Assembly (NCBI GenBank): GCA_002753465.1
Contig: PEAF01000001.1
Coordinates: forward strand, 69,455 to 133,454
Origin: Candidatus Omnitrophota bacterium
GTDB taxonomy: Bacteria; Omnitrophota; Gorgyraeia; Zapsychrales; Fredricksoniimonadaceae
Direction of reading: 5' to 3'
Length of the DNA: 64,000 nt
Shown here: positions 4,867-35,881 of the stretch, one piece after another
Layout: the number at the start of each line of letters is the position of its first letter
How positions within the stretch are numbered: the stretch's first letter is position 1
The notes under the pieces: model-generated
Told to the model about the DNA's origin: nothing
The model's database searches: none
The model's input: only the letters and a program-made list of their open reading frames with translations
Translations under genes and position numbers: made by a program

Positions 4867-4899
4867 CAGAACCTCATTTGGTTTAGGAACATGCGGGTT

Positions 4900-8941: not shown

Positions 8942-8958
8942 ACTTGTTACCTCTCAAA

Positions 8959-10638: not shown

Positions 10639-10680
10639 CCCTGGTCATTGCGTGGCTTTTTGTGAAGGCTTCAGGAACGG

Positions 10681-16815: not shown

Positions 16816-16861
16816 TCATTGTTGGTGAAATGCCTTGATCTGGGCAGGGATAAGTTTGTTG

Positions 16862-18502
16862 TTAATGGTATAAACTCTTTTTGTAATGCCCGATAAAAAC
16901 CCCGTCATGTTCAAGAGAATCTACCAGGACGTAATCCTTAGTGATAACTTCTTTGACTGCAAAGAAATTATTTCCAAAGAAATCATCATTTTCCCATGAC
17001 GATCCGACCAGCCAGAAACTTTCGGGATCCCACGTTGCTTTGCTGATTTTGATATGTCGATCAGGGTAGATCAATCCGTAAAGGGTTTGTTTATCATCGA
17101 ATTTTGTGTCAAATGACCAGCGCTGAAAATACTCCAGGTCAAAGGGTGACAGCAGTTCAGGATAAAACATAATAACGCGTTGTCCTGCGAGCATATTTTG
17201 GGCAGATAAAACTCTATAAAGAAATAACGATGCTTGTATATCCGTTACAACAACCTTTTCATCAGACCTTAGATTATCGGCAACGTGCTTCATCAAGGGC
17301 ATATATCGTTTGTGTTCATGTACCCCTGGATAAAAGTCACGTCCCCCCGTCACATGAAGGATGGTTCCCTGCTTGTAATTCAGCCAACCCAAGATAAGAA
17401 ATATTGCTAAAAAGGCAATAAGAAGTACCCGGCCCCACTTTTGCTGAAAGCTGATGATCCCGTATACCAGGATCATATAGAAGAATGGTGAGAAAATAAT
17501 AAGATGCCTGGCGATGAAAACTGGCGTAAAAAGTGTCGCAAGGCATAAAACGCTAAGTAAAGGAACCACGGTTAGAAGAGAAAGAATCGTGAATTTATGA
17601 CGATCATTGGTGTATAAAAAATGCATTCCCCGGAATAAAAGGCCCCAGCAAAGAAAGCCTCCCGCCCAGAGTTGCCAGGGTTGAGATAAATATCCTCCGA
17701 TAAAAATGCCTGGAAGTGATATGAAATCAGAAAAAGACGGTGAATGTAGCCAGAATTTGCCCTGGCTTAATGAGGAGATCTGTTGTGCGATCATAGGAAA
17801 TTGAATAATGCTAAGCAATGTTGCTATGACCACAAATGGCCAGAGTGCAGAAAAAGAAGCTTTTTTCCTATCGCAGATGTATTCAAGGAACAGGAAGATT
17901 ATAAACACAGAAAAATAAGAAAACATCACGGCAATAGCGCTGGTAATAAGAAATCCTAACAACCACATGCGATTATGGTGTTTTCTTAGACGAAGGTAGG
18001 CGTAAACAGCTAAAAGGAAGAAGAAGCAGAAAGCTGTAAATCCACGTGCCTGCTGAGCATACCAAATATGAAATGAACTGGCGGCCATGATCGCTACCGC
18101 ACCTAAACTTTCAGGTCTGCTCATGAATTTTCTAGTCACTCTGTAAAAGAGCCATAATGATGCGATTCCCCAGAAAACAGAAAGGGCGCGCAAAGCCATT
18201 TGATCCGGAAATAGCATGCTGAAACAATAGACAAATAAATAGTAAAGAAAAGAATGGTAATCAAAAGACAGTAACCGGATAAAATAGCCGGATAGCGTCG
18301 CCGGCAAATGAAATTCAGGGGCAATTGATCGGGAAAGATTAAAGTGTTCCAGTACTTCTTGATGGGTGTATTGAATTGTTGTGAGTTCATCAAACCAGAA
18401 ATCATAACGATCCAGCGCATGGACCCTGAGGATAAACCCGGCCAAAACGATCAACGTTAGAAGCCAGCAGTATAGTATTCGTCGTGACATCAAGTTATCC
18501 AT
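16862..18502 (-). CDS. GT-C fold membrane glycosyltransferase (PMT_2/ArnT-like), paralog A
   Basis: Multi-TM protein with the loop motif FWFDELTTIQYT and FHIWYAQQARGF, plus a C-terminal soluble domain. Paralog of 20008-21645. Confidence 0.7.
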   Translation of the reverse strand: MDNLMSRRILYCWLLTLIVLAGFILRVHALDRYDFWFDELTTIQYTHQEVLEHFNLSRSIAPEFHLPATLSGYFIRLLSFDYHSFLYYLFVYCFSMLFPDQMALRALSVFWGIASLWLFYRVTRKFMSRPESLGAVAIMAASSFHIWYAQQARGFTAFCFFFLLAVYAYLRLRKHHNRMWLLGFLITSAIAVMFSYFSVFIIFLFLEYICDRKKASFSALWPFVVIATLLSIIQFPMIAQQISSLSQGKFWLHSPSFSDFISLPGIFIGGYLSQPWQLWAGGFLCWGLLFRGMHFLYTNDRHKFTILSLLTVVPLLSVLCLATLFTPVFIARHLIIFSPFFYMILVYGIISFQQKWGRVLLIAFLAIFLILGWLNYKQGTILHVTGGRDFYPGVHEHKRYMPLMKHVADNLRSDEKVVVTDIQASLFLYRVLSAQNMLAGQRVIMFYPELLSPFDLEYFQRWSFDTKFDDKQTLYGLIYPDRHIKISKATWDPESFWLVGSSWENDDFFGNNFFAVKEVITKDYVLVDSLEHDGVFIGHYKKSLYH

Positions 18503-18626
18503 TTAATCATAGAGGATAAGATTAAGGGTTTCGACTTTCTTTGTGAAGGCTTGATTTTACTTCAAGTTATGATTTATGTTAATATATAAAAAATTTTTGA
18601 TAACTTAAAGTAACTTGATCTCACCC
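18503..18626. promoter_or_regulatory. Divergent promoter region of the second cassette copy
   Basis: An AT-rich gap that contains AAAATTTTTGATAACTTAAAGTAAC, matching the leader of the first copy. Confidence 0.35.
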
Positions 18627-20003
18627 ATGCTCGATCTGATCCTGATCAATGATTATTCTCGCCAACACCAACCGTTTTCTTACGGTAAAATATGTTTGAC
18701 CGAGTTCCTGGTCCATAAAGGATGGAGAGTTCGTCTCATACAACCGGATGAAATCTTCAGGTTAGGACATGATCCAGCCCGATTCTTTGGTTTAGGTTCA
18801 TGGAGTTCGGACTTCCACCGTGTTGTTGAGACGGCAAATTTCTTAAAGAAAAACTACCCTAAAGTTCCGGTTATTTGCGGGGGAGGTCACATTACGGCCT
18901 GCCCTGGCGAACTTCAAGCATACACTGACATTTTCGATTATTGGGTTTTAGGCGAAGGTGAAGTGGCTCTTCACGAGATCCTTCAAGGACAGCATCAACC
19001 CCGTACCCTGATCACAAGACTTGTTCCTGAACAGGACCTGCTCCCCCCCTCTATCGCCCATAGTCCGATCATGAATGGTTCGTATATCGGTATTGCTTCC
19101 AGAGGATGTCCGCATGCCTGCACATTTTGCAACACGCATACCATGTTCGGTCATAAGACGCGCAATATTCCGATCGAAAAATATTTGCCGTTCCTGAAAG
19201 ATCTTATCCGTAAAGGTATGGTGACGCTCAGCTTCAGAGATCCGAGCTTTCTTAATAATATAAACTGGGCGACTGATTTTTGTACGGCCGTCGTCAAAGA
19301 AGATATTAAATTCAATTGGCTTGCGAGCTGTTGTGCTGAGCAATTAACAGAAGAACGGGTCTTAATGATGAAAAGAGCGGGTTGTATTGGTATTACGATA
19401 GGTGTTGAGTCAGGATCCCAGGCGATGTTGAACATTATGCATAAAACAGCCGGTCTGAGTGAAATGAAGAAAGCCATCAGTCTCTGCAAGGGTAATAAAA
19501 TCCATACACATCTTAATCTTATGTATGGGATCGTTGGTGAAACATATGAAACTATGGCTGCCACACGTGAGTTCTGCCGGCAAACAAAGCCGGACTCGAG
19601 GACACTTTTTTTATACGAGCCGTTTCCAGGAACTGTAATGTTTAGTGAGGCAGAAAGAAACAACCTATTAAGCCCTTATAACTGGGTTAAAGGAAAAATG
19701 CCTCAGCTATTGTCAACAGGGTTTATGACAAGGGCTGAGGTCATAAAAGAGGCTGATCGTCTTTGGCATACCGGTCCTTTTCATCAGTACCTCCGTAATG
19801 CGAATTTGAAGATGAACATGCTCTTTGTGCCTGGCGTTTTGGTTCGAGTTGTTCTTTTAAAGATCCTTTTGTTGTTGAACCAACGCCCCACCCATGTAAA
19901 CCCTCGGCCTTTAAATAGATTTCAACAAGTATGGCAAACTTACACGATCAACTTAATAGGTAAGATCCAAATATATTTACATATTTCTTTATTAAGTACA
20001 TGA
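18627..20003 (+). CDS. B12-binding-domain radical SAM enzyme (class B type), paralog B
   Basis: SRGCPHACTFCNT. I moved the start to ATG 18627 because MLDLILIND matches the N-terminus of paralog A; the track's 18615 start is a TTG. Confidence 0.85.
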   Translation: MLDLILINDYSRQHQPFSYGKICLTEFLVHKGWRVRLIQPDEIFRLGHDPARFFGLGSWSSDFHRVVETANFLKKNYPKVPVICGGGHITACPGELQAYTDIFDYWVLGEGEVALHEILQGQHQPRTLITRLVPEQDLLPPSIAHSPIMNGSYIGIASRGCPHACTFCNTHTMFGHKTRNIPIEKYLPFLKDLIRKGMVTLSFRDPSFLNNINWATDFCTAVVKEDIKFNWLASCCAEQLTEERVLMMKRAGCIGITIGVESGSQAMLNIMHKTAGLSEMKKAISLCKGNKIHTHLNLMYGIVGETYETMAATREFCRQTKPDSRTLFLYEPFPGTVMFSEAERNNLLSPYNWVKGKMPQLLSTGFMTRAEVIKEADRLWHTGPFHQYLRNANLKMNMLFVPGVLVRVVLLKILLLLNQRPTHVNPRPLNRFQQVWQTYTINLIGKIQIYLHISLLST

Positions 20004-20007
20004 AGAT

Positions 20008-21645
20008 TTAGTCAGGCAATATTTTCCTTTTATAGTGCCAGATAAGAACACCATCACGGCTTAGAAATTCTGTTGCGACATAATCTTTAGTAATAAAATC
20101 TCTTACGGCAAGAAAGTTCTTACCTAAAGTAAGATCTTTATCCCACGAAGATCCGATCAACCAGAAACTGGCAGGATGCCATGTTCTCTTGTCGATCATA
20201 ATGTGTTGATCAAAACGAAGCAGTCCGTAAAGCGCTGTCATATTATCCAGTTTTGTGCTCATTGACCAACCCCGGAACGATTCAAGCTCGAAGGGCTCCA
20301 AGAGACCCGGGTAAAGCATGACGATCCTTTGTCCGGCATCCAGGATAGCGGAAGGTAATACCCTGCGAAGGAATATTGTTGCCTGCATATCAGTTGCAAC
20401 AATTTTTTCGTCGGGCTGTAAATTATCTTTAATATGTTTAATTAGTGCGACATACTGCTTTCGTTCATGTATGCCCGGATAGAATTCCCCGCTTCCTTCT
20501 TTATAAAATACTGAACCTTGTCTGAAATTGATCCAGCCGAAAAATAAGAGTATAAATAAAATAAAAGTTACTAGAATGCGAGGCCATTTCATTGGAAAGG
20601 ACAAAATACCATAAACAAATATGATGTAAAAGAATGGAGAAAATATTATAAGATGTCGTGCTATAAAAATTGGGTTGAAGGTCCGCGAGGATAAAAAGAT
20701 CAAGAGGACCGGGAAGATTGTAAGAAGACAAAGGGTAATGAATTTATTCTTATCGGTATTTTTATGTAAGAAACACAATCCTCGCCATAAAAGCAACCAG
20801 AAAATTACGATCCCAGCCAACAACTGCCAGCGCTCAGACAGATATCCTCCGACACAAATAACTGGAAAGAAAATAAGATCACCCGTAGATGGAGGAGGTA
20901 GCCAGAACCGACCATGACTTAGGCACCCGATTTGTTGTGAAATTATCGGTCCTAGAAGAATGGCGGCACCGGTCAATACGAGCCCAATCAGCCAGGAAAA
21001 TGAAAAATAAGAGTTTTGTTTCAGGGTCTTTTTACGGGTAAGCAACAAGCCGAATATGAAAATTGCGTAATACGTAAACATAACGGCTGTAGCAGCTGTA
21101 ACCAGGAAGGCAAACCACCATAAACGACTAGAATGTTTTTTCATGCGAAGGAAACAGTACACAGCTAAAAGAAATAAGAAGCAGAAGATAGTATATCCGC
21201 GCGCCTCCTGAGCATACCAAATATGAAAAGAACTGCCGGTCATGATGGCCACAGCCATCAAGCTTTCGGGTTTTTCAAGAAAGTATCTGGTCACCCGGTA
21301 TAAGATCCATAATGATAAAATACCCCAGAATGTTGAAAGATACCGCAAGGCCATTTCATCAGGAAATATGCTGCTAAAACCATATATCATTAAGTAGTAT
21401 AAAGGCGGTTGGTAATCAAAATGCGCCGAACGCCAAAAATACCCTGCCACAGTAGTTGGAAAGTGAAATTTAGGATCAAATGAGTGAGACCGGGCCAAGG
21501 TCATCGACACTTCATGGTTGGTGTATTGAATAGTCGCTAATTCATCGAGCCAGAACTCAGAACGTCTTATATCATAAGTCCTTGCCAGAAAACCTGCCAA
21601 AATGAGGAAAAATAAAATGAGGCTGTAAATGATGCGGGATGACAT
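20008..21645 (-). CDS. GT-C fold membrane glycosyltransferase (PMT_2/ArnT-like), paralog B
   Basis: FWLDELATIQYT and FHIWYAQEARGY, multi-TM. Its stop lies only 4 nt from the stop of the convergent radical SAM gene. Confidence 0.7.
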   Translation of the reverse strand: MSSRIIYSLILFFLILAGFLARTYDIRRSEFWLDELATIQYTNHEVSMTLARSHSFDPKFHFPTTVAGYFWRSAHFDYQPPLYYLMIYGFSSIFPDEMALRYLSTFWGILSLWILYRVTRYFLEKPESLMAVAIMTGSSFHIWYAQEARGYTIFCFLFLLAVYCFLRMKKHSSRLWWFAFLVTAATAVMFTYYAIFIFGLLLTRKKTLKQNSYFSFSWLIGLVLTGAAILLGPIISQQIGCLSHGRFWLPPPSTGDLIFFPVICVGGYLSERWQLLAGIVIFWLLLWRGLCFLHKNTDKNKFITLCLLTIFPVLLIFLSSRTFNPIFIARHLIIFSPFFYIIFVYGILSFPMKWPRILVTFILFILLFFGWINFRQGSVFYKEGSGEFYPGIHERKQYVALIKHIKDNLQPDEKIVATDMQATIFLRRVLPSAILDAGQRIVMLYPGLLEPFELESFRGWSMSTKLDNMTALYGLLRFDQHIMIDKRTWHPASFWLIGSSWDKDLTLGKNFLAVRDFITKDYVATEFLSRDGVLIWHYKRKILPD

Positions 21646-21648
21646 TAA

Positions 21649-22419
21649 TTATACCTTAGTGCATCTGGCGGTAATGAACCAACCGGTGAACGATCTTGTA
21701 TTTTTATTTCTGTCTAAGAAATCTGCGAAGCGCGTAAAGAATATGGCTGTTTTCATAAGAAGATCAGTTGATAGGGACCCTCGCAAGAGTTTTAGGATCG
21801 AATTTGATGGATTGATTATATGCACCACAACAGCATATTCTTTGGCCATCAATCCAGCCGACTTTAAGTGACGGTCAAGTTCATGCGGGGTGTAAAACTG
21901 AACCGGCCCGGTTCCTTTTACCAACCAACTTTCAATAGTAAGCCAAAAACAGAAATTAAAATTACATTTGTTGTTCATAGCTAATAAAATAGTGCCGTCA
22001 GGTTTAAGCACCCTGCGGAGTTCTTTCAAGGCGCGGGTTAATTCATCTGAACGCTTAAAATGATCAAGGGTGGACGTAGACAGTATCAGGTCAAAAGTAT
22101 TATCCTTAAAAGGAAGGTGGCGTACATCGCCGTTGATATAAGCCTGGTCTTTTTTTGATCGCTCCTTGCGTATAAGATCTGCCTGGACAACCGTTGAGAG
22201 GCAGATATCAATAGCATAAAACTGTGATCCCTTGCCATTCAGTGAAAAAAGAAGTTCATCTTCCCCATAGGCTTCTTCACGCAGATCAGTCTTAAGCACC
22301 GTCATTTTATCAGTACTTATTCCCCAGGCTTGAAGTATTTTCCTGAATTGATCGGATTTATAGCGGCCAAGAACCGGATCAATATGTGAAAGTGCTTTCT
22401 TCGAAACATTGCACGTCAT
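21649..22419 (-). CDS. Class I SAM-dependent methyltransferase
   Basis: FDLILSTSTLDHFKRSDELTRALKELRRVLKPDGTILL follows the Methyltransf_11/25-like pattern. Start is set at ATG 22419 (TGATATG junction with the upstream stop at 22421) rather than the track's 22473. Confidence 0.75.
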   Translation of the reverse strand: MTCNVSKKALSHIDPVLGRYKSDQFRKILQAWGISTDKMTVLKTDLREEAYGEDELLFSLNGKGSQFYAIDICLSTVVQADLIRKERSKKDQAYINGDVRHLPFKDNTFDLILSTSTLDHFKRSDELTRALKELRRVLKPDGTILLAMNNKCNFNFCFWLTIESWLVKGTGPVQFYTPHELDRHLKSAGLMAKEYAVVVHIINPSNSILKLLRGSLSTDLLMKTAIFFTRFADFLDRNKNTRSFTGWFITARCTKV

Positions 22420-22420
22420 A

Positions 22421-23839
22421 TCAGTGCCCTTTGGATACGTTGCACAGGATACGCGCATATTTCTGCAGGCCATACCGGAAGCCCTTTAATCCTGTAGGGT
22501 ATAATCTGAAAAATGATACGTAACCATCCCATAACCAGAAAATATAGGCGTAGAATTTGCCCCAGGGATAATGGATCATTTTACGTATCATCGGCCACAG
22601 CCAGGGGAATTCAACAGCCACAGCAAATAATTTATGAAGGTTTTCGACAGCAAGTTTCTCTTTATTATTAGTGTGAATTATATGCGAATGCCATTCAGAC
22701 CAGGCATGATCCTGCGCTAATAAACCTTTCTCCAAACAATATTCACGAATAGCGGTCTGCGGGTACGGCATCAGTAATTTAACAGTACAGTAATCCACAT
22801 GGCATTGCCAGTTAAGATGAAGTGTTGCAATATCATCCTGCAAAGTTCCTTCGGGGATCCCTAGAATATTAGTTGTTTCTAGCTTTAAGCCGGCTTTCTT
22901 AATGATCCGTGCCGCATCAATAATATCCTGTTTAGACATGCCGCGGTTCAAAACACGACGGCGCAGATCATCATTGGCAGTTTCCAGCCCGATTGAAATG
23001 GTTACACAGCCTGACTTTTTAAGGTATCCGATCATCTCTTCATTGACCAGTTCAACACGTATGTAACAAGAAAACGGGATATGCACATGTTGGGAGTATT
23101 GTTCAGCAAATCGTCGTATCCACGTTATATCAGATGCAAAAAGATCATCTTCGAACATTATAAATGCCACCCGCGCTTTAGTGCATGTTTGCCGGATCTC
23201 CAGGATCACATTCTCGACGCTTCTCCGGCGAACTTTTTTAGAGCTAACGCCATAAAGCTGGTTAAAGGGCGGATGCGAACAATAGGTACATTCAAAAGGG
23301 CAACCGCGGCTTGTCAGCACATGCATCTTACCTTTATGGAATGTTTCGTTCTCTTGAAACAGTTCTCTGTCAGCAAAAGGGAGTGTATCCAGGTTATCAA
23401 TCAAAGGCCTTAACGGGTTCTTAAAAACTATACCATTGTCTTTTACCCATAAATTGGATATCCCTGAAATCGGTTTTCCCGATTCCATGGCATTGGCTAA
23501 TTCAAGGAAAGCGTGTTCTCCTTCCCCGATACACACACAGTCCACCCCATCTTCATAGATCACTTCAGGAACATAGGTAGGATGAGGACCTCCCCAGATT
23601 GAAAAAACTTTGAATTGCGCTTTGATCTTTTTGTTCAATATGAGGTAATCCTGAGCGTAAATGGTCGGAACGCTAAAGGCTATGATCGAAAATGGTTTAT
23701 GCGATAATCTGGCAGCAACTTTGTCAAATATCGACTCAACGATCTCAACCGTATGCCCGGCATCTTTTAATATCCTCGAAAGGAGCATGATGCCCAGGTG
23801 TTCTATATCGCCATGTTTAACAATAAATAAGATATTCAT
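22421..23839 (-). CDS. B12-binding-domain radical SAM enzyme (class B type)
   Basis: MNILFIVKHGDIEHLGIMLLSRILKDAGHTVEIVES, SRGCPFECTYCSH, and an aromatic/hydrophobic C-terminal tail (FYAYIFWLWDGYVSFFRLY). The start abuts the upstream stop (TAAATG). Confidence 0.85.
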   Translation of the reverse strand: MNILFIVKHGDIEHLGIMLLSRILKDAGHTVEIVESIFDKVAARLSHKPFSIIAFSVPTIYAQDYLILNKKIKAQFKVFSIWGGPHPTYVPEVIYEDGVDCVCIGEGEHAFLELANAMESGKPISGISNLWVKDNGIVFKNPLRPLIDNLDTLPFADRELFQENETFHKGKMHVLTSRGCPFECTYCSHPPFNQLYGVSSKKVRRRSVENVILEIRQTCTKARVAFIMFEDDLFASDITWIRRFAEQYSQHVHIPFSCYIRVELVNEEMIGYLKKSGCVTISIGLETANDDLRRRVLNRGMSKQDIIDAARIIKKAGLKLETTNILGIPEGTLQDDIATLHLNWQCHVDYCTVKLLMPYPQTAIREYCLEKGLLAQDHAWSEWHSHIIHTNNKEKLAVENLHKLFAVAVEFPWLWPMIRKMIHYPWGKFYAYIFWLWDGYVSFFRLYPTGLKGFRYGLQKYARILCNVSKGH

Positions 23840-24877
23840 TTACGATATTTTCGCTTCATTAGAAGAAACGGTGTCTGTTTGAGGTTTTTGACGCATAATG
23901 CAATCAGAACTATTGAATTGATCAAGGTAGGGATGTTTTTTCATGCGCGACCAAATGGTTTTCAATTGTTCTGTACGAATATTGCCGGTAGTGAATGGAA
24001 CAAAGCAGCATGGTTGTACATCCCCGTAAGGAGAAACATAGAGCATTTTCTTTAACACAGCATTGCATTCAGTAAACTTGTTACAAACGCCTTCAATATA
24101 AACAAAAAGTGGATCAAGCAAATCTTTCACAATTTGCTTTTCCTGCGCGTTTAAGATCACATTCTTGCAGCCAAGCCATTTGCCGGCTGGGATGGAAAGC
24201 AGGATGCGAACGCCGTGAGCGCTCCTATTTCGGGCAAGTTCTATAATCGCCTTCAAATCACCGTTTTGAATATTCAGACTTGTCGCATATGTAGAGAAAA
24301 TAACAGGGATACCGGCAGCAACACAGGATTGTACAGCTTCCATGGCTTTTTTGAAAATTCCTGGTGATCCTCTTAAAGCATCATGGACTTCGGCGATGGC
24401 GCTATCGACGCTGATATTAATAAAATTAAGGCCTTTTTGTTTTAAGACAGCCGCATAGCCACTGGTGAGCAAAAGACCATTGGTACTTAACCCCGTTACC
24501 ATGCCCAGATCATTGGCATAAGCAATGCATTCCGGCAGATCTTTTCTCAGTAATGGTTCCGCCCCGGCAAAAACTACAAAATAAACGCCAAGGTCCGAGG
24601 CTTGACGCAGTATGGCGTATATTTCCTGTAAAGTTAATTCCGTCGCATTCTGCCGGCTTTGACCATGTATGCCGCAATGCTCACAACTGAGCTGGCAATG
24701 ATATGTAACGCCAATTTCCAGCGATTGAGGAATGCCGGTTCCCCGCCAGGCAGAAACAGTTTTTTTAAACAATACGATAATTTTGGCATGTAAGGGCAAA
24801 GCACGAAAGAAAAGTTCATAATGATATTTCTTCAGTTCAAGCCATCGCCCGATGAACGTTTGATTTGGGTGCTTCAT
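23840..24877 (-). CDS. Radical SAM enzyme with a twitch-like (half-SPASM) C-terminal motif
   Basis: TYHCQLSCEHCGI supplies CxxxCxxC, followed by GAEPLL. The C-terminus has C-x13-G-x4-C (CNAVLKKMLYVSPYGDVQPC) but no CX2CX5CX3C. Confidence 0.8.
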   Translation of the reverse strand: MKHPNQTFIGRWLELKKYHYELFFRALPLHAKIIVLFKKTVSAWRGTGIPQSLEIGVTYHCQLSCEHCGIHGQSRQNATELTLQEIYAILRQASDLGVYFVVFAGAEPLLRKDLPECIAYANDLGMVTGLSTNGLLLTSGYAAVLKQKGLNFINISVDSAIAEVHDALRGSPGIFKKAMEAVQSCVAAGIPVIFSTYATSLNIQNGDLKAIIELARNRSAHGVRILLSIPAGKWLGCKNVILNAQEKQIVKDLLDPLFVYIEGVCNKFTECNAVLKKMLYVSPYGDVQPCCFVPFTTGNIRTEQLKTIWSRMKKHPYLDQFNSSDCIMRQKPQTDTVSSNEAKIS

Positions 24878-24908
24878 TTTTATGCCTTAAATAATTCTTA
24901 TCAGTAAC

Positions 24909-25985
24909 TCACGGGATCAGCGTACGAAAAACCTTGTCCAGTAATTCTGAAAAACTTTCTTTGGAACATCCTCTCATAACGCGGCAGAACATTTTGTCAC
25001 AGGTGGACATCTTTTGAAGTTTCTGTCGGGTTAAAGGGTCACGCCAAATATCATTCAATGATCGTTTGGAAAGATTTCCAATAGAATCCGGTATAAAAGT
25101 ACAAGGGTAAACGTCACCCTGCTCCATAACCCACAAATGATTGCCGAGGGCTTTACATGTACGTAAACGCTCTTGTACCGGGTGATTAAAATAATCCTTC
25201 ATCCGTTCCAATTGACCGTATGGATCAATGATAAATTTATTACTGCGCTTTAATGCGCACAAATTATCAATGATACGATCTACTTTGAGTTTGTCATCGG
25301 GGAAAAGTTCGTTTTCTGACTTAAACTGATGGTTCCTGCCCACACCCGTCATGTCGATGACACCTTGAAAGGAAATGGCAATACGACGCTGTTTGGCAAA
25401 ATCAGCAAGGGGCAGTATCTCATCAAGGTTTGATTTCATGATCGTTGTATTGATCTGAAGGGGGACTTTACGCACTAAAAGGTCGATGGCCGACATGACC
25501 TTGTCATACGTTCCTTTTACCCCCCTCATCGTGTCATGCGTTTCCGGGTTAAGCCCATCCAGGGAAATCTGTAGCATGGAAACTTTGTTGCGTATTAACA
25601 CGCCGGCTGCTTTGGCATTGATCAAGGAGGCATTCGTTGTAATGACAATGCCAATATTATGATGAGCAGAGAATTCAACCAGTTCCAGAAAATCCTTTCT
25701 AAAGAATGGTTCTCCTCCGTAAAAACGCAAGAAACAAGGGCCAACAGATTTTTTAATGTCTAAAATGATGTCCCGCCACTGGTGGGTAGACAACTCCTCC
25801 TTAATTTCATGCTTCCACATGGAACATTGCTGGCAACGCAAATTACACTTATGGGTCAACCGGATATCAATTAGATTCGGTGGCTGGCTAAATGTAATCC
25901 CCTGCAGTTGATCAAGGATCTGTTTCTTGGCGACACTAACGCCGCAATGAAGAAGCCGTGATAACCCTGAATGCGCTCGCATCAT
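24909..25985 (-). CDS. Radical SAM enzyme with a SPASM-like C-terminal domain
   Basis: THKCNLRCQQCSM and GGEPFF. The C-terminus has C-x12-G-x4-C (CKALGNHLWVMEQGDVYPC) plus the non-canonical CDKMFCRVMRGC. Confidence 0.8.
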   Translation of the reverse strand: MMRAHSGLSRLLHCGVSVAKKQILDQLQGITFSQPPNLIDIRLTHKCNLRCQQCSMWKHEIKEELSTHQWRDIILDIKKSVGPCFLRFYGGEPFFRKDFLELVEFSAHHNIGIVITTNASLINAKAAGVLIRNKVSMLQISLDGLNPETHDTMRGVKGTYDKVMSAIDLLVRKVPLQINTTIMKSNLDEILPLADFAKQRRIAISFQGVIDMTGVGRNHQFKSENELFPDDKLKVDRIIDNLCALKRSNKFIIDPYGQLERMKDYFNHPVQERLRTCKALGNHLWVMEQGDVYPCTFIPDSIGNLSKRSLNDIWRDPLTRQKLQKMSTCDKMFCRVMRGCSKESFSELLDKVFRTLIP

Positions 25986-25996
25986 AAAAGAACCTC

Positions 25997-27415
25997 TTAC
26001 ACTTTTCTTCTAAAATTAATTCTTGGGTTAATCTTTTTCATAACAAGTAATAGCTTAGAAACCGGATACTCAAGATGAAAAATAAAAAAGAAACAAAATC
26101 CGTCAATGGACCTACACGTAATCAGATGGATAAATGTTAACAAAAACTGCTCCGACCGCAACCTGATTGTGTTATAAACTGCATTTTTCTGTGATTCGTA
26201 AGCCAAATAATAGGGAGACTTACGTTTTTCTAACCAATAATCCTGGTTAATGAGATCCTTTTTAACAGCATCCTGATATAAAGTGCTGCCTGGCGAGAGG
26301 TACAAAGAAAAGATAGCTAAATGTGTAGGCTGAACCCTCCAAAGCAGTTTTACTGTTGTGATCCAGTCAGATACGGGCCTTTCTGGCCATCCCGCGATTA
26401 CATTTAACCTGAGTGACATTTTAAGAGACCTCGCAAGTCGAACAACCTTAGTGAGATTCTCATAATTGATGGTGATATGGCGATGGCGTTTTGCTAATGC
26501 GGGATCCATGCAGTCGGCACCTATCGTAAACCCCATACACCCTGCTTTATGGACCCACATGACAGTTTCCTCATCAATGTGATTGGGGTGAGTCTGAAAG
26601 AGCCACTGGATTTTTAGGCCACGTTTAATGATCTTTTTACATATGGTAATGACGCGCTCTTTATCAAAAGTAAAAAGTGGGTCCCAAAACATGAATTTTG
26701 ATGTTTGATGGGTCAGACTTATTTGCTCGAGCATATTGACCACACGCTCAGGTGAATGTGCTCGCCATTTACCGCAGCTCATCATATGTTCCGGACAATA
26801 GGAACAATGATAATAACAACCTCGTGATGAAATAATTTCAAAAAGGCGATCGAACGAGCCTATGCGAAATAGTCCTGCCCCTCCCAATGGGCTAAAAAAG
26901 TATAATTCAGGTGACTCAGAACAATCGATATGATCATAAAAATTATCCAGATCAGCATGCGGAGTAAGCTGATCAGTTATTTGAACGATTCCCCGGGTAT
27001 CCCTATAGGCCAAATTATGTACGTCAGAAATATCACGTTTCTCTTCAACGTGCTCGACTAATTCTTTCATGGGGATCTCTCCTTCGCCCAAAATAATAAA
27101 ATCGACGAAGGGAAATCTTTCAAGAAGTGTCTGATGGAAAACAGTGGCGTGAATATTTCCTAAAACGATCTTCACGTCAGGGTAAGATTCTTTTAAGGTT
27201 TTTGCCACGTCAAGAACATCCCAAATACCCGGGGTATAGCAAGTTAATCCAATGAGTGCGGGTGGTCGCCCAGGCCATAATTGAAGCAAATTATCCTTAA
27301 AAGGAGGTTTCAATCTTGCCAAGATTACATCATGACCCTCATTTTCTAAATAAGATGCAATATAACGTAATCCGATTGGATATGACTCATAGGTACTTAA
27401 AAGGCCGACCAACAT
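25997..27415 (-). CDS. B12-binding-domain radical SAM enzyme (class B type)
   Basis: YPIGLRYIASYLENEGHDVIL and SSRGCYYHCSYCPEH, with a hydrophobic C-terminal tail (IDGFCFFFIFHL). AGGAGA SD upstream. Confidence 0.85.
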   Translation of the reverse strand: MLVGLLSTYESYPIGLRYIASYLENEGHDVILARLKPPFKDNLLQLWPGRPPALIGLTCYTPGIWDVLDVAKTLKESYPDVKIVLGNIHATVFHQTLLERFPFVDFIILGEGEIPMKELVEHVEEKRDISDVHNLAYRDTRGIVQITDQLTPHADLDNFYDHIDCSESPELYFFSPLGGAGLFRIGSFDRLFEIISSRGCYYHCSYCPEHMMSCGKWRAHSPERVVNMLEQISLTHQTSKFMFWDPLFTFDKERVITICKKIIKRGLKIQWLFQTHPNHIDEETVMWVHKAGCMGFTIGADCMDPALAKRHRHITINYENLTKVVRLARSLKMSLRLNVIAGWPERPVSDWITTVKLLWRVQPTHLAIFSLYLSPGSTLYQDAVKKDLINQDYWLEKRKSPYYLAYESQKNAVYNTIRLRSEQFLLTFIHLITCRSIDGFCFFFIFHLEYPVSKLLLVMKKINPRINFRRKV

Positions 27416-27572
27416 GCAGTTTCTCCTGAACGAACGAGTTACAAGAAATCAATAAGTACTCTTAGCTCGTGCTGTAAATATTGAGCTTACCCCACTAGTT
27501 GTACAGGTTCATGTTTTGTAGTGGCGACTGATTTAACCACCGTGGTGGTGTTATTTCTGTAGCGTGGTGAAT

Positions 27573-28334
27573 TCACTTCAAATAAAAAGAAGGGGGTTGA
27601 TCGTTCTCAAGTGTATAGAGAACTACGTTGTCTACTTCAGGTCTGTTTTCGTAAACGGCTTCAAGGCGCCAAAAATACTTTCCTTTTCTTAATCCAGTGG
27701 TCGCTAATTCAACGGTATCGCCTTCTGTTTTAAGCAAGGCAACACGCCTCCTTAAATCAGGGACATGCGCAAGCGTTTTGTAAACACTGACAAAATACCG
27801 CTTAACATTTGGGATCGGAACCCAATGGAAAATGATCTTATTTTCAGTTATTATCGTCTGGTCTTGAGGGGTGATCTTTGTGTCATCGAAATAGGATATT
27901 TTTTCTTGAGTCACGTCAAAGCTCGGGATGATGAAATCAGTAGCCGATGCCAGGACATTATTTTCCATATCCATGAAATCAAACCGGTATTCTCCAAGGA
28001 AACCGTAATCAGCATATGATTGCATGACGGAAAAAGGCAAAATACTGAACATGAACGTATTTTCATATCCGTCAACATGATATATGACAGGAAGGTCGAA
28101 CTTCTGTCCTGAGGGGGTCGTCATTATGACTTTATATTCCAACTCATCCATACCCGGGTCCATGTGAACCAGGACGTCGGCCGCAAGCATTAAATCCTTT
28201 CTGCTTTTTATCAGATATGCGCCGCGATCAGCTTCAATGTCTATCTCAGGCTTAGCAAGCACTGCAGGCATGAGTTGTATGTTAATCCCGGATAAAACGA
28301 GTAACAAAATCAGAATTTTATTCATATGATTCAT
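27573..28334 (-). CDS. Secreted hypothetical protein (about 253 aa)
   Basis: The signal peptide MNHMNKILILLLVLSGINIQLMPAVLAKP begins at the internal Met 28334; the track start at 28418 would overlap glgE. I recognise no family. The composition is beta-rich, and the C-terminal part (KYFWRLEAVYENRP) looks like an Ig/FN3-like sandwich. Confidence 0.55.
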   Translation of the reverse strand: MNHMNKILILLLVLSGINIQLMPAVLAKPEIDIEADRGAYLIKSRKDLMLAADVLVHMDPGMDELEYKVIMTTPSGQKFDLPVIYHVDGYENTFMFSILPFSVMQSYADYGFLGEYRFDFMDMENNVLASATDFIIPSFDVTQEKISYFDDTKITPQDQTIITENKIIFHWVPIPNVKRYFVSVYKTLAHVPDLRRRVALLKTEGDTVELATTGLRKGKYFWRLEAVYENRPEVDNVVLYTLENDQPPSFYLK

Positions 28335-28356: not shown

Positions 28357-30393
28357 TCAACTGATTTCCTGATTGATCCGTATGACCTGAACAGGAGAGC
28401 TATTGGGGTCCAATTCAATAAAGACGCTCGCTCCGTTCCAGGAGAAATGTTCGCCGCGTATTAATTCCTTCGCCGCGCAAACACGCTCTTGATTGAATCC
28501 AAATTCATGCCAAGGGATCTCAAGCCAGCCAGTCTGTGTATGATGCGGGTCAAGGTTGACGACGATGATCAGGATATTGGAAAGATCATCCGTTGCTTTG
28601 TAATAGGCTAGGATCTGTTCATTCGAGATCTTGGCGAAACGGATATTACGGGTCTGCTGTAAGGCAGGATTTTCTTTGCGGATACGGTTTAAGACCGCGA
28701 TGAAATCCTTAATATTGCCCTCCCGATCCCAATCCCACTGCTTAATCTCATATTTTTCATTGTCATTATATTCTTCTTTGCCCGGGAAAGGCTCTGTCAG
28801 GCAAAGTTCGAAGGCAGGCCCGTAAATGCCCCAGTTCGATGACATCGTGGCCGCCAAAGCGGCACGCATCATAAAAGAGGCCCTGACACCGTGCTGAAGG
28901 TGTTCGGCAAGGATATCCGGCGTATTCGGCCAGAAGTTGGGGCGGAAGAATTCTGCCACATTGGTCTGAGAGAGTTCAGTCAGGTACTCTTCAAATTCCT
29001 TCTTGGTATTACGCCACGTAAAGTAGGTGTATGATTGCGAAAAGCCGCCTTTGGCAAGGCGGTACATGATCTTAGGCCGCGTGAAAGCTTCAGCCAGAAA
29101 GATCGCATCCGGGTATTCTTTTTTAACGCCGGCGATCAGCCAGTCCCAAAGAAGGAACGGTTTTGTATGGGGGTTATCCACGCGGAAGATCCTTACCCCC
29201 TGGCTCGCCCAGAAAATAAAGATACTTTTTAACTCTTCCCACAAATTCTGCCAGTCAGGTGTATCAAAATTGAAAGGCAGGACATCTTCATATTTTTTGG
29301 GCGGATTCTCAGCATACTGAACGGTCCCGTCAGGGCGCCATTTAAACCACTGGGGATGATCTTTGACATAAGAATGGTCCGGTGAGCATTGGAAAGCGAT
29401 ATCCAGTGCCACTTCCATCTTAAGGGCACGGGCTTGGCTGATGAATGATTTGAAATCATCCATGGTCCCCAGCTCAGGATGAATGCTCTTATGCCCGCCT
29501 GCTGCCCCGCCGATGGCCCATGGGCAACCGGGATCAACCGGCGTGCAAGTTTTAGAGTTGTTTTTTCCTTTACGATGTTTCTGTCCGATGGGGTGAATAG
29601 GCGGCAGATAAATGACATCAAATCCCATACGGGCAATTTCAGGCAGGATCCTTTCACAGTCTTTAAAAGTTCCGTGTTGGCCGGGTATTGCGCTCCAGGA
29701 ACGCGGGAAAAGTTCGTACCAGCTGCTGAAAAGTGATCGGACACGGTCCACTTCAACGTTGACGGCAGGATTGAACGTAACGCTCTTAATCACGTCCATG
29801 TTCGCTTCCATGATCGCTAAAAGTTCATTTGAAACGGCAACGGCCATGGCTGCTTCGATATCCTGATGCTTTTCAAGGATGGCGGCCCACGCGGTCAACT
29901 TCTGCGCTTCAACCGGTAAACAGCGCAAGGCTGTTTCATTGATCATGCGCGCGCCGATCTGAAGATCAACGGCTATATTCACGCCGGAGGCGATCTTCTT
30001 TTTCAGATCAGTCTGCCATGTTGTGAATTCACTGGCGTACCCGCGAACAGTGAAAATATAATCTTTTTCTGTGGCGATTGTGAAGGAGCCTTCCCAGGCA
30101 TCATTGTGAAGGAACTTCATACGCATTTCCTGCCAGTCGCGGGTTTCCGCGTCCTTGAAAAGGAGAAATGCAAGCACTTGATCATGTCCATCGGTGAAGA
30201 CATCGGCACGGACCACGACCTGCTCACCTGTGACACGCTTGACCGGGAAATTGCCCTTGTCGACTGTCGGGGTTACATTTTCAATAATGATCCGGGCATT
30301 GCTTACGGCCACGGGGCTATTTAAGGTTTGATTAGACTGCATTTTATTAACATCTTTAGCAGGCTTCTCTTTAATCTTTTGGATTTTTGACAT
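28357..30393 (-). CDS. glgE: Alpha-1,4-glucan:maltose-1-phosphate maltosyltransferase GlgE (GH13_3)
   Basis: Diagnostic blocks are FDVIYLPPIHPIG, NNSKTCTPVDPGCPWAIGG, HPELGTMDDF, GVRIFRVDNPHTKP, IFLAEAFTRPKIMYRLAKGGFSQSYTYFTWRNTK and FFRPNFWPNTPDIL. Confidence 0.9.
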   Translation of the reverse strand: MSKIQKIKEKPAKDVNKMQSNQTLNSPVAVSNARIIIENVTPTVDKGNFPVKRVTGEQVVVRADVFTDGHDQVLAFLLFKDAETRDWQEMRMKFLHNDAWEGSFTIATEKDYIFTVRGYASEFTTWQTDLKKKIASGVNIAVDLQIGARMINETALRCLPVEAQKLTAWAAILEKHQDIEAAMAVAVSNELLAIMEANMDVIKSVTFNPAVNVEVDRVRSLFSSWYELFPRSWSAIPGQHGTFKDCERILPEIARMGFDVIYLPPIHPIGQKHRKGKNNSKTCTPVDPGCPWAIGGAAGGHKSIHPELGTMDDFKSFISQARALKMEVALDIAFQCSPDHSYVKDHPQWFKWRPDGTVQYAENPPKKYEDVLPFNFDTPDWQNLWEELKSIFIFWASQGVRIFRVDNPHTKPFLLWDWLIAGVKKEYPDAIFLAEAFTRPKIMYRLAKGGFSQSYTYFTWRNTKKEFEEYLTELSQTNVAEFFRPNFWPNTPDILAEHLQHGVRASFMMRAALAATMSSNWGIYGPAFELCLTEPFPGKEEYNDNEKYEIKQWDWDREGNIKDFIAVLNRIRKENPALQQTRNIRFAKISNEQILAYYKATDDLSNILIIVVNLDPHHTQTGWLEIPWHEFGFNQERVCAAKELIRGEHFSWNGASVFIELDPNSSPVQVIRINQEIS

Positions 30394-30500
30394 AAAGATC
30401 CTTTGAATTGAAATAAATTACTAAATGAATATTTTACTTTATCATATAATTTTGAAATTATTTAACAAAGAATACACTAAAAAATGTATTATATTTGCAA

Positions 30501-31709
30501 ATGAAGATAATTTTTCTTACCAATGAGTATCCCCCTGCCATTTATGGTGGCGCCGGCATTCACGTGGATTATCTGAGCCGTGAACTGGCCAAGCTTTGCC
30601 ATGTCGACGTGCGCTGTTTTGGGGATCAACGTTCAGAAAATGATTCCCTTAGTGTTAAGGGTTTCAATGCCGATACGCCTAATTATTCGGCGCCGCAACC
30701 GTTGCGGTCGGTGTTTACCGCGGTACAACGCTGCCTGGATTTCAATACTACCCATATCGACGCTGACCTGGTTCATTGCCATACCTGGTATACCCATTTG
30801 GGCGGGATCATGGCCAAAAAGAATTATTCGATCCCGTTGGTCATTACGACCCACTCGTTGGAGCCTCTGCGTCCCTGGAAACGTGAACAATTGGCCGGCG
30901 GATATGATTTTAGCTGTTGGGTTGAAAAAACTGCCGTTGAAATGGCTGATGCGGTCATTGCTGTTTCCGAGGATACGAAAAACGATATCCTGCGCCACTT
31001 TAATGTTGCGCCTGAGAAGATCCATATTATTCATAACGGCATCGATCTTGATGAGTACCGTCACACAAAAAACCCAGATCTGTTAAAAGCCCGTGGCATT
31101 GACACGACGCAGCCATATGTTCTTTTTGTCGGTCGCATTACCCGACAAAAAGGCATTGTTCATCTTATTAATGCGATCGAGCATATGGATCATGGATTTC
31201 AAATTGTTCTGTGCGCAGGCGCCCCTGATACGCCGGAGATCGCCGCTGAAATGAAAGAACGTTTAAGCGCTATCCAAAAAAAACGCAGCGGTATTATCTG
31301 GATCCAGGAAATGGTAGATATCCCGACTAAAGTTGCGCTTTATTCACATGCGGCCGTATTTTGCTGCCCATCGGTCTATGAACCGTTCGGGATCATTAAT
31401 CTTGAGGCTATGGCCTGCGAAACACCAGTTGTCGCGAGTGCTGTCGGCGGCATCAAGGAAGTTGTTGAGGATGGCAAGACAGGGTTTCTTGTTCCTGTCG
31501 CCTTCAAGGATCTGGGTTCCTACGAACCGGCTGATCCAAAACAATTCAGCCGTGACCTTGCCGAGAAGATCAATGTCCTTATAAAAGATCCGGCTTTATG
31601 CCATCAGATGGGCCAGGCCGGTCGACGCCGAGCGGTTGATCATTTCTCCTGGTCCGCGATCGCCGCCAAGACACATTCACTTTATAAATCGTTGATCAAA
31701 GTCCAATAA
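30501..31709 (+). CDS. glgM: GT4 glycogen synthase of the actinobacterial GlgA/GlgM type (putative alpha-maltose-1-phosphate synthase)
   Basis: MKIIFLTNEYPPAIYGGAGIHVDYLSRELA closely parallels the GlgM (Rv1212c-type) N-terminus. VGRITRQKG and EPFGIINLEAMACETPVVASAVGGIKEVV form the GT4 core. I prefer ATG 30501 to the track's TTG at 30495. Confidence 0.75.
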   Translation: MKIIFLTNEYPPAIYGGAGIHVDYLSRELAKLCHVDVRCFGDQRSENDSLSVKGFNADTPNYSAPQPLRSVFTAVQRCLDFNTTHIDADLVHCHTWYTHLGGIMAKKNYSIPLVITTHSLEPLRPWKREQLAGGYDFSCWVEKTAVEMADAVIAVSEDTKNDILRHFNVAPEKIHIIHNGIDLDEYRHTKNPDLLKARGIDTTQPYVLFVGRITRQKGIVHLINAIEHMDHGFQIVLCAGAPDTPEIAAEMKERLSAIQKKRSGIIWIQEMVDIPTKVALYSHAAVFCCPSVYEPFGIINLEAMACETPVVASAVGGIKEVVEDGKTGFLVPVAFKDLGSYEPADPKQFSRDLAEKINVLIKDPALCHQMGQAGRRRAVDHFSWSAIAAKTHSLYKSLIKVQ

Positions 31710-31728: not shown

Positions 31729-32493
31729 TTATTCTCGGTAAGTTGCGACGCAGTAGAGTGCTCCTACAAAAATAGCCCCGCCAATGATATTCCCTGCCGT
31801 AACGTAGAAAAGATTCCGCATGTAACCGAACCACGTCACGGTATCTCCGTGGGGCGATAAAAGCGAAAGGGCCATCAGTGTCATGTTGGCAATGCTATGC
31901 TCATAGCCGCAGGCGATGAACGCAAAAAGACACCAGAAGATCAGGACGCATTTGCTGATATCATCTTTGGCCCTTCCTGCTGTCCATAAGGCGAGGCAAA
32001 CCAGCCAGTTGCACAGCACACCCCTGAGGAAAAGCTCACTGGCTGGCATGGTCATTTTTGTTGCGGTTACAGTGTTAAGGAAAACGGCGGCATGCTTTAC
32101 AGCGCCCGAATTGACGACCATCCATGCCAGCATAAGGGACCCGATCAGATTCCCTATCCATGAAAGGGCCCATATGCGGCTTAAGTCCAGCCAGGTTGTT
32201 TGACGTTTTAAGAGACCGATCGTCATGTACATGTTGTTCCCGGTAAAAAGCTCAGAGCCGGCGAAAACAACCAAGGTCAGGGCTATGCCGAAAGAGATAC
32301 CCATCAGGGTCTTTAGAAAGATCGAATGCTCTCCTGCCAGTGGGGCTCCGATAGAGAAAATAAGGACGATGCCTAGTCCTACATAGGCGCCGGCAAGGAG
32401 TGAAGCGACAAGGTATGCCAAGGGTGAGCGATTGAGATAGCTGATCTTAGCTTTGGCTAAATTAGCGGCATTGTTGACAGATTCAAGGTACAT
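31729..32493 (-). CDS. Formate/nitrite transporter (FNT) family channel, probably a hydrosulfide/nitrite channel linked to asrABC
   Basis: A six-TM FNT pattern (FAGSELFTGNN, CNWLVCLALW, GYEHSIANM, GNIIGGAIFVG), located directly downstream of asrC. Confidence 0.8.
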   Translation of the reverse strand: MYLESVNNAANLAKAKISYLNRSPLAYLVASLLAGAYVGLGIVLIFSIGAPLAGEHSIFLKTLMGISFGIALTLVVFAGSELFTGNNMYMTIGLLKRQTTWLDLSRIWALSWIGNLIGSLMLAWMVVNSGAVKHAAVFLNTVTATKMTMPASELFLRGVLCNWLVCLALWTAGRAKDDISKCVLIFWCLFAFIACGYEHSIANMTLMALSLLSPHGDTVTWFGYMRNLFYVTAGNIIGGAIFVGALYCVATYRE

Positions 32494-32519
32494 AAAGGTC
32501 CTTTAGAAATTTTCCTACG

Positions 32520-33491: not shown

Positions 33492-33501
33492 GCGCGCTCC
33501 T

Positions 33502-35323: not shown

Positions 35324-35325
35324 GG

Positions 35326-35862: not shown

Positions 35863-35881
35863 AGGCGTCCTTTGTGGTCCG

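Follow-up and report, generated by a model that had tools for sequence, protein, structure and literature searches.

A conserved radical SAM gene core beside GT-C glycosyltransferase genes in Omnitrophota, a candidate pathway for tailoring a lipid-linked sugar

Nearly all the radical S-adenosylmethionine (SAM) enzymes with sugar substrates that we know of belong to antibiotic pathways. There, AprD4, BlsE, DesII, BtrN and GenK-type enzymes share two architectures, a B12-like domain combined with a radical SAM domain, and a radical SAM domain combined with a twitch or abbreviated SPASM domain, and several radical steps are performed on one sugar. In the hopanoid pathway of HpnI, HpnK and HpnJ, HpnJ, whose substrate is an amino sugar linked to a lipid, provides a precedent for a class B radical SAM enzyme that remodels a sugar already attached to a membrane lipid. 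ArnT/PMT-type pathways tailor a sugar in the cytoplasm, load it on polyprenyl phosphate and transfer it in the periplasm, and GT-C enzymes by family use polyprenyl-phosphate sugars. Both radical SAM architectures stand next to a GT-C gene in a stretch of 64,000 nucleotides from a Candidatus Omnitrophota bacterium (contig PEAF01000001.1, positions 69,455 to 133,454), referred to here as the window, within which coordinates are counted (Table 1). Its core comprises four radical SAM genes and a methyltransferase gene in close succession (B12_A, SPASM_B, SPASM_C, B12_D and MT), followed by the membrane glycosyltransferase gene PMT2a. These genes recur together in other genomes, and we propose, with a probability of about 0.45, that they encode an anaerobic, oxygen-independent pathway in which radical chemistry modifies a sugar or glycan on a lipid and GT-C enzymes then deliver it.

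The five genes are co-directional, and the open reading frame list and the sequence confirm to the base the spacing described in an earlier note on this DNA. B12_A and SPASM_B lie 11 nucleotides apart (TAAGAGGTTCTTTTATG), SPASM_B and SPASM_C 31; SPASM_C runs into B12_D without a gap (TAAATG), a single nucleotide separates B12_D from MT (TGATATG), and PMT2a begins 3 nucleotides after MT (TAATTAATG). Judged from this spacing, the genes from 27415 to 20008 probably form one transcription unit; scans for promoter and terminator consensus sequences gave counts at or below those in shuffled sequence. The translations of all four radical SAM genes contain CX3CX2C. The note had counted four radical SAM enzymes of three architectural types and a conventional methyltransferase in the unit. 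The number four stands and the methyltransferase is indeed a class I enzyme, but three types overstate the variety: the distinction between SPASM_B as a SPASM enzyme and SPASM_C as a twitch enzyme fails, both being abbreviated and twitch-like in the cysteine (Cys) motifs of their orthologue alignments.

An alignment scan of genomes with SPASM_C returned 64 loci, and the co-occurrence of the core elsewhere, on which the idea of a joint function depended, is found in several of them. In one family of Omnitrophota contigs (L001-L004 and L010), a B12_A relative and orthologues of the other five genes lie within 10 kb, with identities of 45% for SPASM_B, 51% for SPASM_C, 53% for B12_D, 44% for MT and 28% for PMT_2. 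Four or five of the six genes co-cluster in six further loci, namely L006, L007, L012, L013, L017 and L016, the last from a Planctomycetia metagenome-assembled genome (MAG); the other five and L001/L010 are Omnitrophota or unassigned. Orthologues thus co-cluster in at least seven independent loci from two phyla, and the recurrent core is MT, SPASM_C and B12_D, in this order, plus SPASM_B. Wherever the SPASM_C homologue reaches 43% identity and has enough flanking sequence, an MT orthologue is present too, except in L019, and about 50 loci with more distant SPASM_C homologues lack it. In other lineages, a SPASM_C-type enzyme is fused to a C-terminal MT domain in proteins of about 555-595 amino acids (P0151-P0161, P0308, P0324; L008/L009 10001-11776). 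Conserved co-clustering, the coupling of MT to SPASM_C, and these fusions argue that the genes act as a unit, as had been suggested, and on such comparative grounds the core is a real functional module. The fusion genes come from uncultured lineages, where the island around them counts at least ten radical SAM genes.

The companions of the core in related loci include a GT4 glycosyltransferase (five loci), a PMT_2 GT-C enzyme (four loci), and an ATP-grasp or CapK/PaaK-like ligase. Five of the seven related loci carry a U32 peptidase protein with a partial UbiU match beside a partner of about 260 amino acids without a family match, a pair that suggests an oxygen-independent hydroxylation step which this genome lacks or encodes elsewhere. 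In L017 (Omnitrophota), the neighbours of the core are those of a typical locus for glycan assembly: GT4 (five genes), GT2, GNAT and PMT_2 (two genes each), and a WecA/MraY-type polyprenyl-phosphate sugar-phosphate transferase (PF00953). An NAD-dependent epimerase/dehydratase, a GT2 and a GT4 lie directly upstream of SPASM_B-MT-SPASM_C in L016, and L007 contains a formyltransferase, a GNAT, two PMT_2 genes and two adjacencies of a B12-domain radical SAM gene with PMT_2.

The full SPASM signature consists of seven Cys, CX9-15GX4C ... CX2CX5CX3C ... C, and its canonical CX2CX5CX3C block is absent from SPASM_B and SPASM_C in alignments of their orthologues. SPASM_B displays CX12GX4C...CX4CX5C, with four invariant Cys and a fifth in six of seven orthologues (invariant Cys 47/51/54 and 277/295/329/334), and SPASM_C keeps three Cys in CX13GX4C...C (invariant Cys 61/65/68 and 271/290/326). 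A count of Cys ligands, which had been put forward as a check, therefore falls short of seven in both, and the enzymes are abbreviated and twitch-like, with at most one auxiliary cluster predicted to be fully ligated. The Cys count and the modelled fold of SPASM_C, which matches BlsE, MoaA and SkfB, fit the twitch type. In Pfam, SPASM_B scores 80 bits with Radical_SAM and 32 bits with SPASM, over profile positions 1-55 of 67, and SPASM_C matches Radical_SAM and, over positions 1-47 of 67, part of SPASM; the two are 27% identical to each other's orthologues. SPASM_B has orthologues of 42-50% identity in L001, L006, L007, L012, L016 and L017, and its closest solved structures are SkfB and SuiB. 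SPASM_C is the most conserved gene of the core, with about 25 orthologues at 43-52% identity. Its AlphaFold2 model, with a predicted local distance difference test score (pLDDT) of 90, is matched best in Foldseek by SkfB (template-modelling (TM) score 0.67) and BlsE (0.64), followed by PqqE, SuiB, MoaA, anSME and DesII, at 14-22% identity, and GDGT-MAS is also among the structural matches. By sequence, the solved structures closest to the twitch enzymes are BlsE, SkfB, PqqE, SuiB and MoaA.

MT matches Methyltransf_11 (PF08241) at 65.4 bits, against a cut-off of 21.2, and solved methyltransferases at up to 1.7e-9. Its motif I reads E-E-A-x-G-x-D instead of D-x-G-x-G-x-G, a change kept across the subfamily, and the Pfam alignment begins at position 7 of the profile. 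Among 1.84 billion representatives, only 23 belong to this rare subfamily at E<=1e-30, C-terminal fusions to radical SAM-SPASM proteins among them, and its rarity parallels the SPASM_C orthologue count. Orthologues of 41-46% identity lie directly upstream of SPASM_C in L001, L012, L013, L016 and L017. An alternative in-frame ATG at 22473, used by the public annotation, yields 274 amino acids and a 53-nucleotide overlap, where the ATG at 22419 leaves the 1-nucleotide gap; orthologue lengths of 249-276 amino acids are compatible with either start.

Stand-alone SPASM_C homologues with 38-41% identity also occur in Asgard archaea (Promethearchaeota, Thor-, Hod-, Hel- and Jordarchaeia; L021-L028, L036-L047, L061, L072). 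They repeatedly adjoin genes for an FAD-linked oxidase, a CCG-domain Fe-S protein and SCP2, and some adjoin a 2-hydroxyacyl-CoA dehydratase. Standing alone and in a different context, they were set aside for functional inference.

B12_A and B12_D have the class B architecture, an N-terminal B12-binding domain and a radical SAM domain with CX3CX2C. B12_A scores 73.7 bits with B12-binding (PF02310, cut-off 32.1) and 49.8 bits with Radical_SAM (PF04055), and B12_D scores 57.2 bits with PF02310 and also matches PF04055; Pfam finds the same two domains in B12_E, B12_F and B12_G, which lie outside the core. AprD4 has a B12-binding-type domain but no cobalamin. AprD4 (2e-18) and MgmA (structure 9ccb, PMC11796369; 7e-17) are the closest solved structures of B12_D in sequence searches; the alignment with the cobalamin enzyme MgmA spans both domains (residues 15-373) and that with AprD4 the radical SAM domain only. 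From these domains and alignments, the B12-domain enzymes may use cobalamin; the window contains no cobalamin riboswitch, and its Rfam and tRNA scans are empty. B12_D orthologues are found at 46-53% identity in L001, L006, L007, L011, L012 and L013 and at 38% in L017, commonly in 2-4 paralogous copies, and the extra Cys 103/258/278 are conserved in the alignment. A comparison of B12_A with 5.8 billion protein clusters yields just two relatives above 40% identity (P0002, P0003); its orthologue in L001 is 43% identical, and its closest solved structures by sequence are AprD4 (1e-15) and TokK, with OxsB matching as well. A hydropathy scan predicts C-terminal hydrophobic segments in four of the five B12-domain radical SAM proteins of the window (residues 428-446 in B12_A) and in most B12_D orthologues. 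In the B12_D family, such a segment precedes a conserved aromatic C-terminal motif, W(D/E)GY..F(R)LYP, in 9 of 13 members.

The five genes are not the whole system: B12_A is the least conserved member of the unit, and the core lies in an island of about 24 kb (3046-27415) in which Pfam and NCBIfam identify three PMT_2 GT-C genes and eight genes for radical SAM enzymes, of which five have a B12 domain, two are twitch-like and one has a full SPASM motif. PMT2a has the marks of the GT-C family, a hidden Markov model score above threshold (PMT_2, PF13231, 38.1 bits; cut-off 26.1), eight predicted hydrophobic transmembrane segments, and an invariant D-E pair; it has no sequence match to any solved GT-C enzyme in the PDB. 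Nine cluster-linked PMT_2 homologues share invariant D34-E35 after the first transmembrane segment, together with Y83, R101, S104, Y144, R149, P312 and R330, and PMT2c, whose orthologue in L017 (2769-4373) is 35% identical, has the D-E motif in common with this set.

A convergent pair of about 3.17 kb, a B12-domain radical SAM gene on the plus strand and a PMT_2 gene on the minus strand, is tandemly duplicated at 15448-18502 and 18615-21645. B12_E and B12_F are 65% identical, PMT2a and PMT2b 54%, and direct DNA repeats lie 3155-3179 nucleotides apart across the duplicated module. B12_G, directly upstream of PMT2c, makes a third pair (3046-6390), and its best NCBIfam matches are ApyD (172 against a cut-off of 750) and HpnJ (150 against 578). 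Each of the three GT-C genes in the window thus adjoins a B12-domain radical SAM gene, as happens twice in L007. The earlier note had the unit feeding into a GT-C gene; the adjacency is real, but PMT2a belongs to the duplicated module and is not a simple operon end.

Other genes of the island fit less clearly. Those at 8012-15317 have no orthologue in the related loci, and their membership in the pathway is uncertain. SPASM_H overlaps the CysK-type gene by 4 nucleotides, and the Rid-family gene overlaps the start of SPASM_H by 23 nucleotides on the opposite strand. The G+C content is 0.40-0.43 across 16-28 kb and 0.46-0.50 on either side; the low value at 16000-28000 would suit a locus for a surface structure that evolves fast or is exchanged horizontally.

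Table 1. Features of the island and of related loci. Coordinates are positions in the window, except for the last five rows, where they refer to the locus named (aa, amino acids).
Feature	Coordinates	Strand	Description
B12_A	25997-27415	-	B12-binding-domain radical SAM enzyme, 472 aa; first gene of the tight unit
SPASM_B	24909-25985	-	Radical SAM enzyme with abbreviated SPASM domain, 358 aa
SPASM_C	23840-24877	-	Twitch-like radical SAM enzyme, 345 aa
B12_D	22421-23839	-	B12-binding-domain radical SAM enzyme, 472 aa
MT	21649-22419	-	Class I SAM-dependent methyltransferase, 256 aa
PMT2a	20008-21645	-	GT-C (PMT_2/GT39-like) membrane glycosyltransferase, 545 aa, C-terminal soluble domain
B12_E	18615-20003	+	B12-domain radical SAM enzyme (Pfam); convergent with PMT2a, 4-nucleotide gap; copy 2 of the duplicated module; C-terminal transmembrane helix 403-421
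PMT2b	16862-18502	-	GT-C paralogue; PMT_2 25.4 bits, just under the 26.1 cut-off
B12_F	15448-16815	+	B12-domain radical SAM enzyme (Pfam); copy 1 of the duplicated module; C-terminal transmembrane helix 398-416
PQQ_2 protein	11718-15317	-	Secreted PQQ_2 beta-propeller, 1199 aa
Metalloenzyme-superfamily protein	10681-11721	-	Secreted
GINT1_N-domain protein	8959-10638	-	
CysK-type enzyme	8012-8941	-	Pyridoxal-phosphate enzyme; 355.6 bits, equivalog cut-off 350.95
SPASM_H	6915-8015	-	Full SPASM CX2CX5CX3C; Radical_SAM 61 bits; SPASM profile positions 1-66 of 67
Rid-family protein	6503-6937	+	
B12_G	4900-6390	-	Fifth B12-domain radical SAM enzyme; B12-binding 66.8 bits, Radical_SAM 81.9 bits; C-terminal transmembrane helix 461-479
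PMT2c	3046-4866	-	Third GT-C gene, 606 aa, distinct subfamily; PMT_2 26.8 bits; eight transmembrane segments
U32 protein and ~260-aa partner, L001	17185-19076		
U32 protein and ~260-aa partner, L006	4159-6038		
U32 protein and ~260-aa partner, L007	6571-8509		
U32 protein and ~260-aa partner, L012	4949-6824		
U32 protein and ~260-aa partner, L017	12528-14443		

Orthology to a documented pathway is not found. In whole-protein comparison with the named radical SAM families BchE, HpnJ, HpnR, TIGR04072, AhbD, NirJ, PqqE, MftC, ScmE/F, ApyD, AprD4 and BlsE, all NCBIfam scores lie far below the curated cut-offs, the best being 125 against 481 for BchE, 119 against 578 for HpnJ, 107 against 360 for TIGR04072, 149.5 against 500 for AhbD, 110 against 381 for PqqE, and 97 against 265 for MftC. 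AprD4/BlsE-type enzymes are the nearest or near-nearest solved relatives, but identity is 14-22%, the AprD4 family scores 73-76 against 500, and the BlsE family gives an E-value of 9e-17 with a cut-off of 400; moreover, those enzymes belong to antibiotic clusters, whereas the genes here, from a candidate phylum of anaerobes, lie with genes for GT-C enzymes and envelope glycosyltransferases. HpnJ is the best partial NCBIfam match of both B12_D (118.8 bits) and B12_F, yet the score is far under its cut-off of 577.6, squalene-hopene cyclase, HpnH, HpnG, HpnI and HpnK are absent here, and the hopanoid pathway has no counterpart of the island GT-C genes. With ArnT/PMT-type pathways, the locus shares PMT_2 membership, a topology of multiple transmembrane segments, D-E after the first of them and, in L007, a formyltransferase. 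It differs in that ArnA-D orthologues are absent, radical SAM enzymes would do the tailoring, and several GT-C genes are present, each next to a B12-domain radical SAM gene.

Two further systems come from bacteria of, or related to, the Planctomycetes-Verrucomicrobia-Chlamydiae (PVC) group. Groundwater Elusimicrobia, likewise PVC-related uncultured anaerobes, carry up to 13 clustered radical SAM genes, some with B12 domains, beside group VI nitrogenase paralogues (10.1101/765248); these islands are the closest parallel in print. Several Elusimicrobia MAGs encode distant SPASM_C homologues (36-41%), but their loci lack MT, SPASM_B and PMT_2 orthologues, and the window has no NifH/D/K-like gene. 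The proposed ladderane or 'lipid B12-rSAM' clusters (PMC2649909; TIGR04072) also combine multiple radical SAM genes in PVC bacteria, and partial TIGR04072 matches are seen here, but at 98-107 against 360. An anammox/ladderane origin, prompted by these matches and by G+C content, was dropped, given sub-cut-off scores, a window without FabF, ACP, FabZ-type or other fatty acid synthase genes, and a host from Omnitrophota rather than an anammox planctomycete. The host is placed in this phylum by its HtpG, which is 90% and 72-77% identical to the HtpG of Candidatus Omnitrophota MAGs, and by a PilB-receiver fusion with 50% identity to one in an Omnitrophota MAG. The proteins of the window form singleton clusters. 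Full-text searches for radical SAM genes in connection with Omnitrophota, GT39, polysaccharides or ladderanes turned up no published description of the cluster. All the proteins come from known superfamilies; what appears new is the combination of a twitch-radical SAM, MT and B12-radical SAM core in glycan loci with pairs of B12-domain radical SAM and GT-C genes.

The proposed pathway draws on gene architecture, conserved synteny, gene fusion, the glycan-locus context in relatives and the lack of orthology to a named pathway, from which we infer the substrate, the acceptor and each chemical step. At the cytoplasmic face, several radical steps would take place on a sugar that is or becomes linked to polyprenyl phosphate, the most likely form of the substrate. 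SPASM_B and SPASM_C would abstract hydrogen from the sugar, leading to oxidation, dehydration, decarboxylation or epimerisation, as in BlsE, DesII, BtrN and anSME. The B12-domain enzymes would methylate unactivated carbons or perform a rearrangement or deoxygenation of the AprD4 or HpnJ type, and MT, in partnership with SPASM_C, would methylate a heteroatom. The modified lipid-linked sugar would then be flipped and moved onto an envelope acceptor by the PMT_2 GT-C enzymes, each genomically paired with its own putatively membrane-anchored B12-domain radical SAM enzyme. The solved near-homologues include the sugar-modifying enzymes BlsE, AprD4 and DesII, which supports this scheme. A lipid-linked product or carrier, already suggested by the earlier note, gains support from the three island GT-C genes, the WecA/MraY-type transferase with GT2 and GT4 enzymes in relatives, and the C-terminal hydrophobic helices of the B12-domain enzymes. 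The interpretation of that note is thus supported in part: the unit behaviour stands, and the SPASM/twitch split does not.

Several observations weigh against the scheme. Similarity to sugar-acting radical SAM enzymes is remote (17-22% identity, TM score about 0.65) and no better than that to enzymes with peptide substrates such as SkfB, SuiB, PqqE and MgmA. Beside the core, the window has no recognisable polyprenyl-phosphate GT2, flippase or sugar-nucleotide enzyme, and the glycan context comes mainly from relatives. The U32 pair is missing from all 64 kb, so the pathway here may differ from theirs. The hydrophobic helices derive from a simple hydropathy scan, and the AlphaFold2 model of PMT2a, built from three sequences, reaches a pLDDT of 41, leaving its fold to Pfam and motifs. 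As a whole, the scheme is a prediction from sequence, synteny and a model. A stronger but rather doubtful claim is that membrane-anchored B12-domain enzymes matched one to one with GT-C enzymes would form a new route to C-alkylated or otherwise radical-remodelled polyprenyl-phosphate sugars and would, with the core, build a new class of envelope glycoconjugates, made in the absence of oxygen, in Omnitrophota and some Planctomycetota.

The radical SAM enzymes could instead methylate, cyclise, cross-link or desaturate the hydrocarbon of a membrane lipid, with the GT-C enzymes as mere neighbours or as head-group enzymes. HpnP/HpnR, GrsA/B, Tes/Mss and the proposed ladderane enzymes are precedents for such lipid tailoring. 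HpnJ, HpnR and the 'lipid biosynthesis B12/rSAM' family TIGR04072 are indeed among the best partial NCBIfam matches of the B12 enzymes, but at scores three- to six-fold under the cut-offs, TIGR04072, for example, at 107 and 98. The C-terminal hydrophobic helices would suit a lipid substrate, as would the GDGT-MAS structural match, the amine-oxidase/phytoene-desaturase-like flavoproteins in the radical SAM islands L008, L016, L019 and L039, and the SCP2 and FAD-oxidase genes beside the Asgard homologues. However, the island contains no fatty-acid, isoprenoid, squalene-hopene cyclase or glycerol-ether genes, and the recurrent neighbours of the core are glycosyltransferases and sugar enzymes rather than lipid synthases, which leaves a lipid product unlikely. 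Another product could be a diffusible molecule of pseudo-oligosaccharide or nucleoside type, or a novel cofactor of tetrapyrrole or quinone type, built by the radical SAM enzymes together with MT and, in relatives, with the UbiU-like U32 hydroxylase. AprD4 and BlsE stem from antibiotic pathways, the SPASM enzymes have their best partial matches in AhbD and NirJ2, the U32 protein partially matches UbiU, MT weakly matches UbiE/UbiG, and a novel cofactor has been proposed for the radical SAM-rich islands of the related Elusimicrobia (10.1101/765248). The scores are nevertheless far under the cut-offs (149.5 against 500 for AhbD, 73.5 against 440 for UbiU), the window lacks genes for tetrapyrroles or quinones (UbiA or Mqn) as well as nitrogenase-like genes, and three membrane GT-C genes with a WecA-type transferase indicate the envelope and not a soluble product. 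Such a small molecule or cofactor is less likely still.

Much the same low likelihood applies to modification of a peptide or protein, either a ribosomally synthesised and post-translationally modified peptide (RiPP) or a protein altered after translation. The SPASM enzymes would then cross-link or epimerise, the B12-domain enzymes would C-methylate in the manner of proteusin enzymes or MgmA, MT would N- or O-methylate, and the GT-C enzymes would O-glycosylate a secreted protein; glycosylation of proteins is a known activity of PMT-family GT-C enzymes. Among the nearest structures are SkfB, SuiB, PqqE and CteB, as well as MgmA, which methylates peptides; partial matches extend to ApyD and RiPP C-methyltransferase families, and relatives encode ATP-grasp or CapK-type ligases. 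Nonetheless, no cluster protein has a RiPP recognition element (RRE/PqqD, PF05402). Only about 40-50 residues precede the barrel of SPASM_B and SPASM_C, and the SPASM_C model has two short helices there, so that no room is left for such an element. No small intergenic reading frame is conserved across eight loci, those that are shared all being antisense shadows of large genes, and the gaps of the window hold no candidate precursor, although a distant one is possible. A leader peptidase and an ABC exporter are lacking, the adjacent secreted proteins are neither conserved nor Ser/Thr-rich, and a search beside the GT-C genes found no Ser/Thr-rich acceptor protein. Tailoring of a lipid-linked sugar therefore remains the reading we favour.

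If the proposed sugar pathway is correct, it would add new anaerobic C-H functionalisation chemistry on glycans, in the form of a conserved set of four to eight radical SAM enzymes within an apparent locus for envelope glycans in a candidate phylum of which hardly any member has been cultured. The multiplied GT-C genes of Omnitrophota would gain a first link to a function, and the pathway would point to an unknown surface structure in this phylum, many of whose members are believed to attach to other cells or prey on them. The fusion of MT with a twitch-radical SAM enzyme and the pairs of B12-domain radical SAM and GT-C genes provide concrete, testable enzyme partnerships.

Directly upstream of the island lies an alpha-glucan pair, a GlgE maltosyltransferase and a divergent GlgA-type synthase (28357-31709). 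The GT4 gene at 30495-31709 was considered as an island member and excluded, as it is the GlgA-type glycogen synthase (532 bits) paired with GlgE. Co-directional genes at 31729-35931 encode a formate/nitrite transporter, a small NIR_SIR-type sulfite/nitrite reductase-like protein with a ferredoxin domain, an FAD/NAD oxidoreductase subunit, a 4Fe-4S dicluster protein and a hemerythrin. An overlapping co-directional string at 44814-49530 comprises a cyclopropane-fatty-acid-synthase-type methyltransferase, a GT4 and a protein of 755 amino acids without a Pfam match. A PilB/GspE-type ATPase with a C-terminal response-regulator receiver (712 amino acids) is encoded at 41580-43718 of the window and, with 50% identity, at 2260-4386 of the Omnitrophota MAG locus L012, where the fusion gene lies just upstream of the radical SAM cluster.

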